Sequence record: PZ357121.2
Direction: 5' to 3' (one strand)
DNA length: 64,000 nucleotides
DNA from: a phage
In this document: one piece after another, positions 2,058-57,723 of the stretch
How positions within the stretch are numbered: the first letter of the stretch is position 1
Layout of the letters: every line of letters starts with the position of its first letter
Program-made: the position numbers and the translations under genes
Notes under the pieces: generated by a model
The model's database searches: none
Seen by the model: only the letters and a program-made list of their open reading frames with translations
What the model was told of the DNA's origin: nothing

Positions 2058-2398
2058 TTAAACCATTCCTTAATACGTTGCCAAATAGATTTTTGTGCTT
2101 GTTTATTTACACCAATCGAACGAATAACCGGTTGTGACTGCTGATATTCTTTATAATCTTCTTTATAGATTTCGTAAGCGGCATCAACAAATGAACTGAT
2201 CGCTGCCATAAAGTTTTTACGTATACCGCCAGGAGCTACTCCATTAGGGAATTCAGAATTTTCGCGAATAATTAAATATAACCCAGCTTTAACTTTAACT
2301 ATAGTTCCAAGATAAGCCCCGTGGTACCAAATATCCCATCCTTCCTGAGTAGGTTCTGCACATTTACGAAGTTCGTTAATAATATTCAGCTTATTCAT
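2054..2398 (-). CDS. hypothetical protein (114 aa)
   Basis: ATG ORF tightly packed. Confidence 0.6.
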
Positions 2399-2408
2399 TA
2401 TGTATTCC

Positions 2409-3041
2409 TCACAGTACGTTAGTTACAAGGGTAATGATTTCTTTGGACACATTAGGGAAGTCAATGTAAGTATATTTACCACCGATCTTAATCTTAACAT
2501 CATTTTCAAGAGAAGTAAACAGCTTTGATTCAGTTTCTGACATGTTGTATGCAAAGATTCTAAGAGAACCATCTCGACGAATTTCGATCTGACGAATACC
2601 TAGAACTCGTTTTGCAAATCGAACTTCCAAGTTACTACGGTTTTCACCGATTTCTTTAACTTCAACTTTATCTTTAATATTTTCAAAAACAAAGTTTGCT
2701 AGTTCATGCATTTCAGGAGTAACTCCACGTGCTTTTCTGGTGTTACGTTTCTGAAGAAGTTCTGGAGCATTTTCTTGGGCAAAAAGGTCTGCAGCTTTTT
2801 GGATAATATCCATTGCTTCGCCTGTTGCTATAAGTCCATCACCAGATTTTTCGACTAAACCTTTCTTAATCAATACACCAATGTTAGAGTTAACAACCGA
2901 TGCATTGTATTCCGCTTCCAGAGCTTCACGGACATTGGCAGCAGTGGTGAAGTTGTTCTTAATGATATAAACCATTATTGCAGCAGTTTTTTCATTCAGA
3001 GCGTTTTCGGAAGCTTTGATGATGTAAGCAACTTTAGACAT
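2409..3041 (-). CDS. hypothetical protein (210 aa)
   Basis: ATG ORF with GGAG SD 8 nt upstream; early promoter upstream. Confidence 0.65.
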   Translation of the reverse strand: MSKVAYIIKASENALNEKTAAIMVYIIKNNFTTAANVREALEAEYNASVVNSNIGVLIKKGLVEKSGDGLIATGEAMDIIQKAADLFAQENAPELLQKRNTRKARGVTPEMHELANFVFENIKDKVEVKEIGENRSNLEVRFAKRVLGIRQIEIRRDGSLRIFAYNMSETESKLFTSLENDVKIKIGGKYTYIDFPNVSKEIITLVTNVL

Positions 3042-3080
3042 TTTATTTCTCCAATTTGGTTGTTTTGTTTTGATAGGTCT

Positions 3081-3109
3081 ATAATATCATGTTTGAAGCA
3101 CATGTAAAC
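3081..3109 (-). promoter_or_regulatory. T4-type early promoter (-35 GTTTAC, 17 nt, extended -10 TGaTATTAT)
   Basis: Minus strand GTTTAC-N17-TATTAT then AGACCTATCAAAAC leader, GGAG SD and ATG at 3041. Confidence 0.6.
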
Positions 3110-3136
3110 TGTTTTGTGAGAAAAAAATGCACAAAA

Positions 3137-3152
3137 GGGAGCTTCGGCTCCC
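3137..3152 (-). terminator. rho-independent terminator downstream of gene 52
   Basis: GGGAGC-TTCG-GCTCCC hairpin followed on - strand by TTTTGTGCATTTTTTT. Confidence 0.6.
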
Positions 3153-3228
3153 TAATCATGTTTGTCCAACCAATACAGCCAAATCACTAGTACAGCTATT
3201 GCACCGAGAAATCCTAAGGCTATGGCAC

Positions 3229-4554
3229 TCAAAGTGCCTCCAAGTCTTTAGTGTACTCTGTCACAACATCAGTAGACTTCCAATACTCATTTTCTTCTTT
3301 CTTAGCTTTAGCTTCTTCCGCTAGTTTACGTGCTTCGTCAGAAGTGATATGGAAGATGTTAAGGCCTACCAGTTTATCGACATGTTCTTTATACATTTCG
3401 ATTTGTGCTAGCTCTTCAGTCAAAGCTTTACGAGTCTTGCCCTGAATCACAATTTCGCCACTGATAACTTTTTTGATGAAGTGTGCCTTAGCAAAAGCCA
3501 GTTTAAATGCTTTTTCAGATTCAAGGATTTTGTTGTCAATACGTTTCTGAACGTAAGTCTTACGGACTTCAACAAAATCTTTGATTAAGTCCACTACATT
3601 ATCATAGACTGCTAATTTACCCTTTTCATTAATCACTGTGATGTTTTGTGAACGACGTTCGATGAGACTAAAATCTTTCATGATTTTTTCATGACGTAGC
3701 TCTTCATCATCAGGAAGCGAGTACTCTTTACGGAACTTCACCTTAAACCCAAAGCCGTGTTCACCGCAATCATCTTCCCATGAGATTAGACCTTTGTCTT
3801 CCAACGGGTCAAGAACCTTACTCACATACGTTTCACGGTCAAATTTATATGGGATTTCAGTTATCTGCATTTGAGTGCGAGATGTGAACTTATATGTTCC
3901 GTGAATCTCATAACGCCCATCAACTTCATGTACTTCACCACGGAATTCTGGGAATTCAACTTTTGGCTTAGTAACATTTTTACCTTGAAGAGCTTGTAAT
4001 ACAGCCTTTTTGACTGATTTAAAACTATGAGGCAGAATATTTGTTGCGTAACCGGTTGCAATACCAGAGACACCATTCAAAAGAACTGTCGGAATAATAG
4101 GAAGATAGAATTTTGGTGGAATGTGTTCTTTATCTTCATGAGCTGGAGCATATTCAGTATCTTTATATACGTTATAGAAATTTTTACTTACACGAGCAAA
4201 AATATAACGAGATGCTGCAGCTTTTTGGACTGTTCTAGAACCAAAGTTGCCTTGGCCATCTAACAGTGGATAGTTGTTGTTCCATGTGTTAGCCATCAAT
4301 GCACCTGCATCTTGTGCAGAGATTTCACCATGGTGATAACCTAAATCTGCAACACCGCCTGCAATTGACGCAAGTTTATGAAATTTTTCTTTATTACCAC
4401 GAGCCAAATCTAACGCACGATGAACCACAAAACGTTGAACCGGCTTAAATCCATCAATCATGTTTGGGATTGCACGGTTTTCAACGGTGTACATCGCATA
4501 TGCTAAGGCTTCGTTATCAATAATACTTTTTAGATTACGAGAATTCAATTGCAT
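3229..4554 (-). CDS. 52: DNA topoisomerase II medium subunit gp52 (441 aa)
   Basis: ATG ORF; GyrA-like N-terminal region; length and sequence match recalled T4 gp52. Confidence 0.9.
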   Translation of the reverse strand: MQLNSRNLKSIIDNEALAYAMYTVENRAIPNMIDGFKPVQRFVVHRALDLARGNKEKFHKLASIAGGVADLGYHHGEISAQDAGALMANTWNNNYPLLDGQGNFGSRTVQKAAASRYIFARVSKNFYNVYKDTEYAPAHEDKEHIPPKFYLPIIPTVLLNGVSGIATGYATNILPHSFKSVKKAVLQALQGKNVTKPKVEFPEFRGEVHEVDGRYEIHGTYKFTSRTQMQITEIPYKFDRETYVSKVLDPLEDKGLISWEDDCGEHGFGFKVKFRKEYSLPDDEELRHEKIMKDFSLIERRSQNITVINEKGKLAVYDNVVDLIKDFVEVRKTYVQKRIDNKILESEKAFKLAFAKAHFIKKVISGEIVIQGKTRKALTEELAQIEMYKEHVDKLVGLNIFHITSDEARKLAEEAKAKKEENEYWKSTDVVTEYTKDLEAL

Positions 4555-4558
4555 ATTT

Positions 4559-4699
4559 TCACCATATTAATGAACGAATAACCATTATAACATCTGAAAT
4601 GAAAAGCACTACTTGGATTAGCCCAAACATCACACCGTAGTACAGAACCGTAAGCAAAAACAAGAGCCCGAAGGCTCCTGCTAAGATTTTCTTAATCAT
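4559..4699 (-). CDS. putative small hydrophobic peptide (46 aa)
   Basis: ATG overlaps TGA of upstream small ORF; hydrophobic; ends 4 nt before gene 52 ATG; ORF contains a terminator-like hairpin so may be non-coding. Confidence 0.3.
   Translation of the reverse strand: MIKKILAGAFGLLFLLTVLYYGVMFGLIQVVLFISDVIMVIRSLIW
4664..4677 (-). terminator. terminator-like hairpin (GAGCC-CGAA-GGCTC + T-rich tail)
   Basis: Stem-loop followed on - strand by TTGTTTTTGCTT; lies inside the 46-aa ORF. Confidence 0.35.
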
Positions 4700-4845
4700 T
4701 GCTCGCCTTTTAATACGTTAAGAAGAGCTAAGACCGCTAAGGTACCTTGTGACACAGCCTGTTGAAATACTGTTGTTTCGCCTGTAACTAAAGTGTTAAC
4801 GAATAAAAACGACCAACACAGCAATGCAATAATCCATGCTACCAT
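4696..4845 (-). CDS. small membrane protein (49 aa; position of T4 ac/stp)
   Basis: ATG ORF missed by 60-aa cutoff; hydrophobic N-terminus MVAWIIALLCWSFLF; lies between ndd and 52 like T4 ac. Confidence 0.4.
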   Translation of the reverse strand: MVAWIIALLCWSFLFVNTLVTGETTVFQQAVSQGTLAVLALLNVLKGEQ

Positions 4846-52478: not shown

Positions 52479-52949
52479 TTAATCATGTTTCCACACCCCA
52501 TCGGTATTTGACCAAAGTCGCTGATTATCTGATCCTCGCCACAGCTTTTTAGTCGGAAGATTTTTCTCATACTTCCCATCAATAATAACATCAACATATT
52601 TAAGCATTTCTAGTTGTTTAATATCTTCAAACTTATATCCTGTCCACAACCAAATGCTTTTATTGGGATAAAGATTTTTTACTGTTTGAGCAATGCAATG
52701 AATAACATCTCGGTTATCAGGATAGAGAGGGTCACCTCCGGTTATAGTTAATCCTTCTATATAATCATTATTCAAACATTCAATTAATTGTTCTAGTGTT
52801 TCACCAGTGAATGGAACACCATTTCTAGCATTCCATGTTGATTTATTATAACACCCTTCGCATTTATGCAAACAACCTGTAACGAAAAGAACGACCCTGC
52901 ATCCAGGACCATTCACAAAATCGCAAGGATAAAATCTATCATAATTCAT
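52479..52949 (-). CDS. nrdG: anaerobic ribonucleotide reductase activating protein NrdG (radical SAM, 156 aa)
   Basis: ATG ORF; N-terminal Cys cluster CLHKCEGCYN typical of RNR activases; overlaps nrdD stop. Confidence 0.9.
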   Translation of the reverse strand: MNYDRFYPCDFVNGPGCRVVLFVTGCLHKCEGCYNKSTWNARNGVPFTGETLEQLIECLNNDYIEGLTITGGDPLYPDNRDVIHCIAQTVKNLYPNKSIWLWTGYKFEDIKQLEMLKYVDVIIDGKYEKNLPTKKLWRGSDNQRLWSNTDGVWKHD

Positions 52950-54225
52950 TGGTGTTTAACCCTATGCATGATTTCTTTATTTTTACCGAGATTAAATCCG
53001 CGTTCGTTCGGATTTCCCAAATAACCACATGTTCTTCTTATTGTGTTCATCTTTTTAGGATCAGTTTCTCCACAAACTGAACAAACAAATCCGTTTTCAG
53101 TAGGAGTCATTTCATGGGTACTTCCGCATGTAAAACATTTATCTACTGGCATATTAACACCAAAATAATCTAAATGTTGTGCAGCATAATCCCATACGGC
53201 CTCAAGACCTTTTAGGTTATTTTTCATATCAGGAAGTTCAACATAAGAAATGTGACCGCCGGTCGCTATGAAATGATATGGCGCTTCACGAGAAATCTTT
53301 TCAAACGGAGTAATATTTTCTTCTACTGAAACGTGGAAACTGTTAGTGTACCAGCCTTTATCGGTAACATCCTTTACACTTCCATATTTTTCTGTATCGA
53401 GTTTACAGAAGCGATAACAAAGGTTTTCAGCAGGAGTCGAATATAAACTAAAAGCAAAACCGGTTCTTTCAGTCCACTGCTTAAGATGAGCATTCATTTT
53501 AGTTAAAATTTCTTGTCCAATATCACGACCGACAAGAATATTCAATTCGTGAATACCAATGTATCCTAAGGACACTGAACTTCTACCGTTTTTAAATAAC
53601 TCAATTATATCGTCATCAGGTTTAAGACGAACCCCGAATGCACCTTCTTGGTAAAGAATAGGAGCAACAGTCGCTTTAACACCCTTTAAAGAACTAATTC
53701 TACACATCAAGGCTTCAAAACACAGATCCATTCGTTCATTAAACAACTCGATAAATTTCTGTTCATTGAACTGTGTTCCAATATAAGAATCTAATGCGAT
53801 GCGAGGAAGATTCAGCGTTACAACACCGAGATTATTACGTCCATCAAGAATTTCATTACCAGTCGAATCTTTCCATACGCTCAAGAAACTACGGCAACCC
53901 ATTGGAGAAACTGGAACTGAAGAACCGGTAATAGCTTTATTATTCTTAACCGAAATAATGTCAGGATACATTCTTTTGCTTGCGCATTCTAACGCAAGTT
54001 GTTTAATATCATAGTTCGGATCATCTTTATAAAGATTAACACCTTCTTCAACAAACATAACAAGTTTAGGAAAAATAGGAGTTATTCCATCACGACCAAG
54101 ACCTTTAATGCGGTTTTTAAGAATTGCCTTCTGAATAATTCGTTCAGTCCAGTCAATTCCCGTACCAAATGTAATTGTCACAAAAGGCGTTTGTCCATTA
54201 GAGCTGAAAAGTGTATTTACTTCAT
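52946..54225 (-). CDS. nrdD: anaerobic ribonucleotide reductase NrdD, exon 2
   Basis: Reading frame continues NrdD (...EVNTLFSSNGQTPF...) to the glycyl-radical C-terminus; 3' splice site placed after intron-terminal G so that exon1 T + AT GAA GTA gives ...QAYEYEVNTLF; spliced product 605 aa as T4 NrdD. Confidence 0.8.
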
Positions 54226-55270
54226 CATTATATTCAGCATGAGTCGCAAATTCATGCCCGTTTATATGAAACAACAAAATTTGGATAGTCCATAGATATG
54301 CAACGTTCTTTTATAGTGCTAGGATGAAAATTTAGCGCTTTAGCTGCTTCTATATAAGACGTATACTTAATACCGTCAACAACCACATATTCAGGAACTT
54401 TATGAATAGTAGTCTTAATACTCAAAACAAGAGGATGAGTTTCGACTTCACTTTCAGTGCAATTTAAATATTCCGCTGCTTTTTTAAAACTTCTAAAAGT
54501 TTTATTTTTAAGCTTTATCGATACTTGTTTTTTACTTTTTCGACTATTGATATTATTTTGCACATGTTCCTTAGATCTTCCGTTTTTAGCATAATATTCA
54601 GCTACAGAAGATTTTATATTGTTTTTATGAGATTCGGATAACACTTTACCCTTATGAGCATCTCTTAATTTTTGAATATGTTCTTCAGTATCCGGATGCT
54701 TATAAAACTTTTTACCGCCTATGGATTTATTTAAACATTTTTTGCTATAAAAATATTTACGTATGACCTCTTCTTCATGTTTTAATGCATCTTTATAACT
54801 ATCAAATGTTTTTAAAATTATCCATTTAGTAGGTGTATCAGTTTTTAAGCGTTCATTTATATACTTAGATGACGTTGTGTAAGTTTTCCAGTTTGTGGGC
54901 TTGTTTTTAATTGTTCTAAATTTTTTATAACCGATATAAATGTCACCATTAGAAAACTTAACTAAGTATGTAAATGCGTCTTTATCTTTTATTTTAGTAC
55001 AACGTCTTTTTATCCATTTCATTGTTTCACCTCGTATTCATAAGATAATCTTATTTATACAAGATGACTGCTGCATGTCGCCATGCAGATTAGACTATAT
55101 CTTCATCTTTCGATGCCGGCCGTTTCGAATAGCATTAGCTTCTATTCTACACCGCTACATTCATCACGGTTAGTCGTTAGGCATTTAGTTCAAAAGAACA
55201 TTTAGCACGGGATTGTCTACTAGAGAGGTTCCCCGTTTAGACCGGTTTTACATGAGCCTGAATTAAATTA
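54226..55270 (-). mobile_element. group I self-splicing intron (nrdD/sunY-type) carrying a homing endonuclease ORF
   Basis: Interrupts nrdD reading frame; 5' intron sequence ...TAAACGGGGAACCTCTCTAGTAGACAATCCCGTGCTAAA... matches recalled T4 sunY intron core; exon 1 ends in U, intron ends in G. Confidence 0.8.
54252..55022 (-). CDS. GIY-YIG homing endonuclease, I-TevII-like (256 aa), intron-encoded
   Basis: ATG ORF inside the intron; N-terminal GDIYIGY...KF GIY-YIG motif; basic C-terminal DNA-binding region. Confidence 0.8.
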   Translation of the reverse strand: MKWIKRRCTKIKDKDAFTYLVKFSNGDIYIGYKKFRTIKNKPTNWKTYTTSSKYINERLKTDTPTKWIILKTFDSYKDALKHEEEVIRKYFYSKKCLNKSIGGKKFYKHPDTEEHIQKLRDAHKGKVLSESHKNNIKSSVAEYYAKNGRSKEHVQNNINSRKSKKQVSIKLKNKTFRSFKKAAEYLNCTESEVETHPLVLSIKTTIHKVPEYVVVDGIKYTSYIEAAKALNFHPSTIKERCISMDYPNFVVSYKRA

Positions 55271-55808
55271 ACTCATACGCCTGGAATGCATCGTATACGT
55301 CTTTTTCTGTTTTAGATTGGGCATAATTCAACGCATCAGCGATTTGCCATTTTTCTGCATCCTCAATATGTTTTGCATAGGTGCGTTTAACATAAGGAGA
55401 AAGAACTTTATCGACATTCGCAAATGTAGTTCCACCATACTGATGCGAAGCAACTTGTGCAGTAATTTGTGCCATAATTGCAGTAGCAACACCAATAGAT
55501 TTAGGCGTTTCAATTTGAGCATTGCCGAGCTTAAATCCGTTTTCAAGCATTCCTTTTAAATCTACTAAACAGCAATTAGTAAAAGGCAATGATATACTGT
55601 AATCTAAATCATGAAAATGAATTAATCCAACATTATGGGCATTTACAATATGACTTGGAAGAATACGACAAGCGATATGTTTAGAAACAATACCGGCCAT
55701 TAAATCTCTTTTTGTTGGAAAGACGCGAGAATCTTTGTTGGCGTTTTCTGTATTTAATTCTTTATCTTTATTTGAAATAAAATTTAAAACATCTTTTTCT
55801 AAAGACAT
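55271..55808 (-). CDS. nrdD: anaerobic ribonucleotide reductase NrdD, exon 1
   Basis: ATG ORF; MSLEKDVLNF...NENANKDSRVFPTKRDLMAGIVSKHIA...CCLVDLKGMLENGFKLGNAQIETPKSIGVATAIMAQI... matches recalled T4 NrdD N-terminus; frame ends in intron stop. Confidence 0.85.
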
Positions 55809-56620
55809 AATTCTAATTTATCCTTTTGAAATTCTTCGTCTAAATATGGGTTCCAACCCATTTTAAACCTTTTGATGAAATTATCAATTCTAAATTTCGG
55901 TAAGTTTAAATCCGCAAAAATAGATGATTTACTTTTAAAATCTGGACTTAAATAATCATATAAAATTTCTGCGTATTTTAACCATAATATACAAGTACCA
56001 GATTTAATTGCTCTCGGAGTTTTCCAAGGTTTTACACCATACATCGGATTTCCACTTCCTTTATGCCTGATAGAAGATGAAATTCCAATTTTAATTTTAG
56101 CTTCCTTTGTATGCGAAAATCCACGATGTGGATTTTCTTTCCAGTATTTTTTAGAAGCTTCTGATATTTTCTTTCTGGCTAAATTAGTATGATGCTTTCC
56201 ATAAAATCCATGATTTTTGCCTTTATTACGATTTCTTTTAATCATGGTTATTGATTGCTTTTCTCTAGTTTCTTTAGAAGGAGAAATACCATATGTCGTA
56301 AATTGGCCATCAGCATATGCTAAATTAAAATACTCTTTATTCCATACATCTTTTTCTATATTCTTTTGAAATTCAGCTTCAATGCTAGTTATTTGTTCAT
56401 CTCCGACTAATTGAAAATATAATATCTCAACTTTCGGCGTTTCTTTCAATAAGGCTTTTTGAAATTCGGAAGATGACGAAGACGAATAATAAAATTTACC
56501 ATTTTTATCAATAATATTCGTTCCGTCAAAAGTGCAATTGGTTTTACTTCCAATGTAATAATATGGCGGGGTTTTAGCATTAATTCTACTAATAAACGAT
56601 AGTTTATATACTACATTCAT
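55799..56620 (-). CDS. free-standing GIY-YIG homing endonuclease, Seg-like (273 aa)
   Basis: ATG ORF; N-terminal YYYIGSKT...(GIY-YIG-type) and repeated basic helix (NUMOD-like) segments; inserted between 49 and nrdD. Confidence 0.7.
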   Translation of the reverse strand: MNVVYKLSFISRINAKTPPYYYIGSKTNCTFDGTNIIDKNGKFYYSSSSSSEFQKALLKETPKVEILYFQLVGDEQITSIEAEFQKNIEKDVWNKEYFNLAYADGQFTTYGISPSKETREKQSITMIKRNRNKGKNHGFYGKHHTNLARKKISEASKKYWKENPHRGFSHTKEAKIKIGISSSIRHKGSGNPMYGVKPWKTPRAIKSGTCILWLKYAEILYDYLSPDFKSKSSIFADLNLPKFRIDNFIKRFKMGWNPYLDEEFQKDKLELCL

Positions 56621-57090
56621 TTTAAACTCTTTCTAAGCTGCTTTTTGAATGAAGCTATTAATTGTGTTTTAGTATCAGATTCATTATATTCAAATCCTCT
56701 TTGAAGCATCTCGGCCATCATTTCCTCTTTACCTAGTCTCGAGAACTCTTTAGTTTTGTCTGGAACAAAATTAGGATGGATATTATTATCAGAATAATCT
56801 TGTTTCAAATAAGCAAGAAGAGCTTCAAGCCATTCGAGGTAGTTGACATCACGGCCTTTAAGACCGGAACGGTTGAACTTATGCTTCATTTGACCTTCTG
56901 CTGCGTTGCACAGATTACAGAGTAACCCACGAACTCTACCGGCTTTTGGCCCGTTTAATTCGTGGTCGTGGTCAAGATGGTTACCTTGAACATCAGGGTC
57001 TAATTCACGGTGGCAAATAGGACACTTACCGTTCTGTGCATCATAAAATTTTTGTTTTTCTTCTTTATATTTTGCGCCTGATAATAACAT
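56617..57090 (-). CDS. 49: recombination endonuclease VII gp49 (157 aa)
   Basis: ATG ORF; ...KQKFYDAQNGKCPICHRELDPDVQGNHLDHDHELNGPKAGRVRGLLCNLCNAAEGQMKHKFNRSGLKG... near-identical to recalled T4 endo VII. Confidence 0.95.
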   Translation of the reverse strand: MLLSGAKYKEEKQKFYDAQNGKCPICHRELDPDVQGNHLDHDHELNGPKAGRVRGLLCNLCNAAEGQMKHKFNRSGLKGRDVNYLEWLEALLAYLKQDYSDNNIHPNFVPDKTKEFSRLGKEEMMAEMLQRGFEYNESDTKTQLIASFKKQLRKSLK

Positions 57091-57125
57091 GATAAACCCT
57101 TACCTTAAATAGATAAGGGTATTTA

Positions 57126-57551
57126 TTAACTTAAACGTCTTTCTAAATATTCAATGTATTCTGCGGCTGCTTGCATCAGGTTACCTTCATAGCCGTCGTT
57201 ATTTTCTTGTCCAGCTAATTTAGCTAATGCATAAGAAATTCGTTCACCTTCGAATTCACCAAGTTTACTACCTAGCACATCCGCAATATCAGCCGAATCA
57301 ATTTCTTCGAGTTCATCTATTGAATGTGATTCCCAGAAGCACCAAAGAGAAGTATCACGGTCATAGATGCAAAGTTTCTCACCAGTGTTCAACATCACTT
57401 CAATAATGCCATGGTCGCCATAACCATCTTCGGTCGTAGTACCAATTACCTTGATGATTGTTCCTTTCTTTAATTCAGGAAACTTGACTTGTAGTTCTTC
57501 ATCTTCTTTAACAATCTTGAACCATTTACCACGTGTGTCAGAAATATTCAT
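57126..57551 (-). CDS. hypothetical protein (141 aa)
   Basis: Internal ATG with AGAGGA SD chosen to avoid 137-nt overlap; between nrdC and 49 where T4 pin lies (not verified). Confidence 0.45.
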   Translation of the reverse strand: MNISDTRGKWFKIVKEDEELQVKFPELKKGTIIKVIGTTTEDGYGDHGIIEVMLNTGEKLCIYDRDTSLWCFWESHSIDELEEIDSADIADVLGSKLGEFEGERISYALAKLAGQENNDGYEGNLMQAAAEYIEYLERRLS

Positions 57552-57552
57552 A

Positions 57553-57723
57553 TCAATATCCTCTATAAAAGTTACGATGAGAACGTTTAGCTTTGCGAAG
57601 CTGACGTTTAGTAGGACGAACTGTAAATGGTTGTCCAGAGAAAAAATTCGGATCTGTTTTAATAAGCAAATACCAATCATGCTTGCCATTTTTTAATAAA
57701 CGGTACAATAATTTAACTTGCAT
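57553..57723 (-). CDS. hypothetical protein with basic VRPTKRQLR tail (56 aa)
   Basis: ATG at 57723 with GGAAGAGA SD (track start is TTG); C-terminal motif shared with 26524-26736. Confidence 0.45.
   Translation of the reverse strand: MQVKLLYRLLKNGKHDWYLLIKTDPNFFSGQPFTVRPTKRQLRKAKRSHRNFYRGY

Follow-up and report, generated by a model that had tools for sequence, protein, structure and literature searches.

The gene that lies between gene 49 and nrdD in the 64,000-nucleotide stretch of phage DNA analysed here (the window) is probably that of a free-standing GIY-YIG homing endonuclease in the SegG subgroup, one that would spread by intronless homing together with its own 5′ segment of nrdD. 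The gene lies on the minus strand, in the order pin, gene 49, endonuclease ORF, nrdD exon 1, group I intron, nrdD exon 2 and nrdG (Table 1); the nrdD ORFs downstream of it match Pfam NRDD. It is tightly fitted to both neighbours: its ATG overlaps the stop codon of gene 49 (ATGA, 56617-56620), and its last 10 nt (55799-55808) overlap the ATG of nrdD. The G+C content of the ORF is 0.29, compared with 0.38 for gene 49 and 0.37 for the whole window. An earlier note, made from the sequence of the window, had proposed a seg-like gene at this junction that is missing from T4, and two GIY-YIG elements in the nrdD region. Both proposals hold, the second element being the I-TevII-like ORF within the nrdD intron.

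Table 1. Features of the nrdD region of the window, with positions, strand and the evidence for each
Feature	Position	Strand	Evidence or remarks
nrdG	52479..52949	-	
nrdD exon 2	52946..54225	-	
Group I intron in nrdD, 1045 nt, after nrdD nt 538	54226..55270	-	Rfam RF00028, 70.6 bits
Intron ORF, I-TevII-like GIY-YIG, 256 aa	54252..55022	-	56% aa identity to T4 I-TevII; Pfam SegE_GIY-YIG
nrdD exon 1 (nt 1-538)	55271..55808	-	Pfam NRDD 4.9e-40; alignment to intronless ST0 nrdD
Endonuclease-linked nrdD 5′ allele (nt 1-225, codons 1-75)	55584..55808	-	Co-inherited with the endonuclease gene; presumed cleavage-resistant version of the target
SegG-like homing endonuclease gene, free-standing, intact	55799..56620	-	273 aa, ATG start; PHROG 7504, SegG similarity
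C-terminal helical domain (aa ~198-273), presumed DNA-binding	55802..56029	-	Poorly modelled
Linker with NUMOD3-type DNA-binding motifs (aa ~115-200)	56021..56278	-	Pfam NUMOD3 6.3e-7; profile matches to 1I3J
N-terminal catalytic domain (aa 1-105), divergent GIY-YIG fold	56306..56620	-	VVY(3-5), YIG(22-24), E81, N99
Gene 49 (endonuclease VII), upstream flank	56617..57090	-	Pfam Endonuclease_7 and EndoVII dimerisation domain, E 2.5e-32
Site resembling a T4 middle promoter (MotA box TGCTTCA, 13 nt, TATAAT), within the 3′ end of gene 49	56683..56708	-	Pattern scan
pin	57126..57689	-	

Comparison with relatives showed that the junction is otherwise empty. In T4 (KJ477684) and T2, gene 49 and nrdD adjoin by a 4-nt overlap (ATGA) with nothing in between, and the Mosigvirus phages mar005P1, F27 and SHSML-52-1, which are the closest backbone relatives of the window, likewise have a direct junction. 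Since this junction is clean in T4, T2 and the close Mosigvirus relatives, the endonuclease gene represents a real insertion, polymorphic among these phages, rather than an ORF that arose by chance. As judged by sequence, the window has a Mosigvirus-like backbone: in gene 49 it shares 96-98% identity with F27, mar005P1, SHSML-52-1 and ST0, and only 81% with T4. The gene has the further features of a Seg element: it is located between host genes, outside any intron or intein, has the same orientation as its neighbours, and is present or absent at a fixed site.

The closest known relative of the protein is T4 SegG, to which its first 128 residues are 40% identical (6e-27; tblastn and BLASTP). 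PHROGs assigned it to family 7504, 'homing endonuclease' (3e-34), and NUMOD3 was the sole domain detected by Pfam. Together with the motif residues described below, these results support the earlier reading of the gene as a Seg-like GIY-YIG homing endonuclease. The C-terminal domain weakly resembles the C-terminus of SegG (PWKT..R, GW.P..D.E), and the C-terminal ~75 residues show a pattern common to two metagenomic relatives (P0002 and P0004). A paralogue of the same length (P0003, 273 aa) is found at positions 4001..4822 of an ENA contig (NODE_202, locus L013), from another T4-like phage, where it is flanked by the gp5 gene and, downstream, by a gene of T4 type (Pfam Phage_T4_Y07E). Its catalytic domain is 57% identical to that of the window protein and its C-terminal half is different, a combination that fits domain shuffling, by which Seg enzymes may be retargeted to new sites.

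By profile search, the GIY-YIG assignment was upheld in part. A family profile that included canonical GIY-YIG members matched the catalytic domain of I-TevI (1LN0, 1.2e-8) as well as its DNA-binding domain (1I3J), whereas a profile restricted to SegG-like relatives reached 1I3J but not 1LN0. The Pfam GIY-YIG models (PF01541 and PF19835) matched neither the whole protein nor the N-terminal domain alone. This miss was not counted against the GIY-YIG reading because T4 SegG, included as a control, had no Pfam match either. The score of the protein against NCBIfam TIGR01453 was 22.9 bits, below the cutoff of that model; a phmmer search of the PDB gave no matches, and Foldseek with the full model returned nothing significant.

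The first GIY-YIG motif is V3-V4-Y5, of which Y5 is conserved in at least 90% of the SegG-like relatives, and the predicted model has a β-strand at residues 2-8. The second motif is Y22-I23-G24, with Y22 and G24 conserved in at least 90% of sequences even when canonical PF01541 members are included. E81 is near-invariant (at least 90%) in one alignment (A1) and invariant in another (A2), and N99 is invariant in both; these two residues align to the metal-binding E75 and N90 of I-TevI (1LN0). At the position of I-TevI R27 the aligned residue is D32, and T4 SegG is also without Arg there. R12 or K26, both near-invariant in the SegG-like subgroup, might stand in for this Arg. The modelled fold is α/β with a three-stranded sheet, as expected for GIY-YIG domains. 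Membership of the GIY-YIG superfamily is therefore supported by the fold and by four of five signature residues, while the R27-equivalent Arg and the curated profiles fail for this protein exactly as they do for SegG. With D32 at the R27 position, the case for a catalytically competent enzyme is one of analogy: SegG shows this feature as well, and by this analogy the protein would be an active nuclease.

T4 SegG is a free-standing GIY-YIG homing endonuclease whose gene occupies the 59/32 junction (Liu et al. 2003, as cited in PMC2988022), and is listed as experimentally active (PMC2988022 Table 1). The catalytic domains of the two proteins share the opening MN(I/V)VY...PPYYYIGSK...E...YFNL, and a similar motif occurs at both C-termini. 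Both genes are apparently promoterless cassettes co-oriented with their neighbours, and each enzyme would be expected to act at a distance on the essential gene next to its own, with co-conversion of that gene. They differ in locus (59/32 for SegG, 49/nrdD here), in presumed target (gene 32 and nrdD, respectively) and in length (211 and 273 aa). The predicted architecture of the window protein is that of SegG plus ~80 extra residues of NUMOD3 linker, which SegG does not have. I-TevI (td intron; 1LN0, 1I3J) differs in that it is encoded by an intron and cuts within 25 bp of the insertion site; it also has R27 where D32 is found here, its identity to the window protein is ~20%, and no zinc finger is evident in the latter. 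Closer to hand, mobC and SegH (PMC2988022 Table 1, ref 41) are free-standing too and are found in the same anaerobic ribonucleotide reductase operon, at the nrdD-nrdG junction. However, they flank nrdD at its opposite end and represent other families (HNH in the case of mobC), and their site is empty in the window.

The endonuclease gene was present in 50 of about 700 phage records matching gene 49, with 95-100% nucleotide identity and always at the 49/nrdD junction. According to their gene 49 type, ~15 of these carriers are Mosigvirus and ~35 are Tequatrovirus. The near-identity of the copies crosses this boundary: the window and the Tequatrovirus carriers share only 81% identity in gene 49, but 98-99.8% in the endonuclease gene. 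The ORF was intact in all 50 records, each being recovered at full length as a single tblastn piece. Among eight loci, 24 variable codons had synonymous changes only and 14 had amino-acid-changing ones, and this synonymous skew runs across the whole ORF. Most carriers have the gene annotated as 'homing endonuclease' or 'hypothetical protein', and one as 'SegG homing endonuclease'; no description of an endonuclease gene at 49/nrdD turned up in our searches of the literature. Scans of IMG/VR and metagenomes for diverged copies returned only copies of ~99% identity, plus one unrelated N-terminal homologue.

These data bear on whether the gene is still a nuclease gene at all. The lack of Arg at the position of I-TevI R27, and the failure of canonical GIY-YIG profiles to find the protein, could be signs of a domesticated or inactive relic, which would no longer cut and would be kept because it carries the ribosome site of nrdD and couples its translation, or because it acts as a DNA-binding regulator. 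The nrdD start and its likely Shine-Dalgarno sequence do lie within the 3′ end of the ORF, and downstream-gene promoters embedded in endonuclease ORFs are known to favour endonuclease retention (PMC2988022). Nevertheless, we consider a relic unlikely. The motif pattern is that of an experimentally active enzyme, T4 SegG, which Pfam likewise fails to detect; E81 and N99, the catalytic residues, are conserved across the family; substitutions are skewed towards synonymous ones over the entire ORF; the near-identity of the copies in two genera points to a recent spread; and the nrdD of phage OLB35, described below, does without the endonuclease gene.

In carriers the endonuclease gene is accompanied by a distinct version of the start of nrdD. 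A column-by-column test identified 78 fixed differences between carriers and non-carriers. Every one of them falls within nrdD nt 4-225; nrdD nt 226-540 and the last 300 nt of gene 49 are free of such differences. In a sliding comparison, this nrdD segment was ~100% identical among carriers of both genera, while gene 49 tracked the genus. The segment encodes a distinct allele of NrdD residues 1-73, of equal length to the other allele, with 28 codons changed and 23 silent; from residue 74 onward NrdD is identical between the two. Its G+C content (0.289, compared with 0.342-0.347 for the other allele) is low and resembles that of the endonuclease gene. The linked allele is restricted to carriers plus OLB35, and a search for its donor found no endonuclease-less phage closer than ~75%, except for OLB35, which is a deletion derivative. 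The inherited unit is thus larger than the endonuclease ORF, at ~1.04 kb (56620..55584). On the left it is bounded by the conserved end of gene 49, where the 3′ ~100 nt of that gene provide homology, and on the right by the conserved stretch of nrdD that encodes PFTNCCLVDLK.

A block with such edges could, in principle, spread without any nuclease activity. The sequence on either side of it is strongly conserved between genera, so that any recombination would resolve there, and the T-even region is mosaic throughout, with the nrdD intron and the pin gene also varying independently. Free recombination among co-infecting T-even phages could then have moved a 1-kb heterology block by ordinary homologous exchange, with the endonuclease gene as a passenger. 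Yet the only large heterology in the region is precisely an endonuclease gene that is strictly linked to a diverged segment of the neighbouring gene, a linkage pattern that matches the marker exclusion associated with SegF, SegG, SegB and SegE (PMC2988022). Moreover, the block keeps an identity of 98-100% in backbones whose gene 49 differs by 19%. We judge passive carriage to be quite improbable, and homing, more than ordinary recombination, to be the likely driver of the spread.

Intronless homing by a SegG-type enzyme, the reading that we favour, would proceed as follows. A promoterless cassette would have taken over the ribosome site and the ATGA start of nrdD. In a mixed infection, the enzyme would cleave the genome of a co-infecting phage without the gene, in the 5′ region of nrdD, and double-strand-break repair from the carrier genome would copy both the endonuclease gene and the first 225 nt of the carrier's nrdD. 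The carrier's own diverged first 225 nt would presumably be uncuttable. This mode, in which cleavage occurs at a distance and the flank is co-converted, is termed 'intronless homing', and the cut sites of free-standing T4 endonucleases do lie hundreds of bp or more away from the genes that encode them, with co-conversion of the flanks (PMC2988022). The right-hand boundary at nt 225 was considered as a cut site and was rejected: resection has to reach homology on either side of the break for repair to occur, so a heterology block gives sharp edges wherever the cut falls.

Two genomes carry footprints of the loss and decay of the element. In the Mosigvirus OLB35 (MH992122, an UNVERIFIED record; locus L012, 1480..1560), the endonuclease gene has been deleted in frame, such that the first 22 nt (7 codons) of its ORF are fused to nrdD at nt ~23 (codon ~9). 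The resulting NrdD starts MNVVYKLLYFISNKDKEL, and the carrier-type nrdD allele has been kept. Judging by this record, which is flagged UNVERIFIED, NrdD evidently tolerates a foreign N-terminus.

The second footprint, in a Logan contig (SRR27536177, positions 2188..3180; L015), is the sole diverged copy that we found at the 49/nrdD junction. It comes from a more distant T4-like phage, whose gene 49 is 67% identical to that of the window. Here the order is gene 49, a 55-codon nrdD remnant, a decayed endonuclease copy and a complete nrdD. The 55-codon ORF is what remains of a non-carrier-type NrdD N-terminus (FPTQRDL) and ends at nrdD nt ~165, the endonuclease copy is 68% identical and is interrupted by stop codons after ~residue 50, and the 5′ end of the complete nrdD has the carrier-type signature (K33, FPTKRD, GLIH, HDLDY). 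The presence of a carrier-type nrdD 5′ end beside a copy of only 68% identity indicates that the pairing of endonuclease and nrdD segment is old. From this arrangement, we infer that the cassette in the L015 lineage landed inside nrdD at ~nt 165. In being inside the old nrdD frame and leaving a separate 5′ fragment, the cassette is similar to Aeh1 mobE, which splits nrdA (PMC2988022). In contrast to mobE, however, it is followed by a complete nrdD, and the upstream piece is a redundant remnant, so that nrdD is not split functionally.

The end of the L015 remnant, at nt 165, may serve as a lead, from a single locus, to the position of the cut, and the fixed differences that separate carriers from non-carriers are clustered most densely at nrdD nt 138-158. 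It is conceivable, although we would hold it only tentatively, that a self-contained cassette with its replacement nrdD 5′ end lands by one-sided homology in a foreign nrdD, and that nt ~165 and nt 138-158 mark the cleavage site. The cassette would then restore a complete nrdD, so the old 5′ end would be left as a dead remnant, as in L015. If true, one-sided landing would let the cassette cross between phages that are too diverged for two-sided homologous repair.

The L015 copy is also informative about the function of the enzyme. Homing endonucleases exclude rival markers, and nrdD is a presumed target, deduced from the sequence comparisons; the main role of the enzyme might instead be competition or defence, through the cutting of rival genomes or of sites other than nrdD, with the linkage to nrdD incidental. 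The confinement of carrier-specific differences to the adjacent nrdD segment, and the fact that the distant L015 copy is likewise tied to nrdD, make such a role very hard to credit.

As to its expression, the cassette appears to be promoterless. No exact T4 late promoter (TATAAATA) was found upstream of the endonuclease ORF, a scan for sigma-70 promoters and terminators gave nothing above shuffle expectation (terminators, none), and RNA folds at the endonuclease and nrdD starts had z values of -0.3 to -2.0, with no convincing hairpin that would sequester a ribosome-binding site. The MotA-box-like site within gene 49 was identical in all 11 aligned phages, carriers and non-carriers alike, and is presumed to drive both the endonuclease gene and nrdD. 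The endonuclease gene would use the ribosome site and the ATGA that serve nrdD in non-carriers, both of them provided by the conserved 3′ ~100 nt of gene 49, and the 3′ end of its ORF would supply a new coupled start for nrdD, with AAGGA, 12 nt upstream of this start, as the likely Shine-Dalgarno sequence. Promoterless cassettes are also described for seven free-standing T4 endonuclease genes, segG included (PMC2988022).

A further conserved element was seen upstream of gene 49, at ~57095..57127 on the minus strand. It comprises AATAAATA, a one-mismatch match to the T4 late promoter (57127..57120), followed by an inverted repeat, CCCTTA-N11-TAAGGG. From ATAAATA through the inverted repeat, the sequence is identical in all 11 phages aligned, which represent both genera; in the 10 nt that separate the repeat from the gene 49 ATG, the only variation is one genus-specific base and one single-base insertion. 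This area is annotated as 'terminator' in fPS-2 and Lutter. The inverted repeat may correspond to a hairpin known from T4, which has a regulatory role at the ribosome site of gene 49.

Other sites nearby are also variable. The group I intron was missed by Rfam at its gathering threshold and was detected with laxer filters. It is a second variant of this intron: F27 and SHSML-52-1 (Mosigvirus) as well as GRNsp7 and Lv5cm (Tequatrovirus) have introns that match it at ~100% identity, but the intron of T4 and fPS-2 has only ~65% DNA identity to it. Like the seg-like gene, the intron variant in the window is shared across genera, but the two are distributed independently. The ORF within it and I-TevII itself are GIY-YIG homing elements targeting nrdD, as the SegG-like protein presumably is, and lie ~530 bp downstream within the gene; they differ in being intron-borne and in belonging to another subfamily (Pfam SegE_GIY-YIG), and all four combinations of presence and absence of the two elements occur. 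At the nrdD/nrdG overlap (52946..52949) the window has no insert, whereas T4 and HP3 have mobC there, and Ec_MI-02, GRNsp7 and Lv5cm have a seg-like gene of ~279 aa at that junction. Lv5cm and fPS-2 have endonuclease genes at all three sites of the operon. The pin gene, which encodes the PinA protease inhibitor (57161..57580 in the window), is present in the window, mar005P1 and F27, and is missing from the close Mosigvirus relatives ST0 and SHSML-52-1. The pin ORF of the window (187 aa) extends ~50 codons upstream of the Pfam PinA match, and the true start is therefore probably internal to the listed ORF.

The element is thus a real but fairly ordinary example of the known T4 Seg type. It is already present in many public genomes, where its annotation is generally correct, and so it is not a new kind. 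Its linked nrdD segment, its spread across genera and the two footprints add useful detail, but all of these would be expected from the biology of homing endonucleases. With it, the 49/nrdD junction becomes the third homing-endonuclease site in the T-even anaerobic ribonucleotide reductase operon, beside the nrdD intron and the nrdD/nrdG junction. One consequence is that codons 1-75 of nrdD in carriers are a hitch-hiking foreign segment, which should not be taken for vertical divergence. As a putative SegG-type nuclease with a predictable target window of ~225 bp, the enzyme should be easy to characterise. The locus offers a clean natural example of the life cycle of such an element, from invasion across genera and linkage to a presumably immune allele, to in-frame loss and decay.
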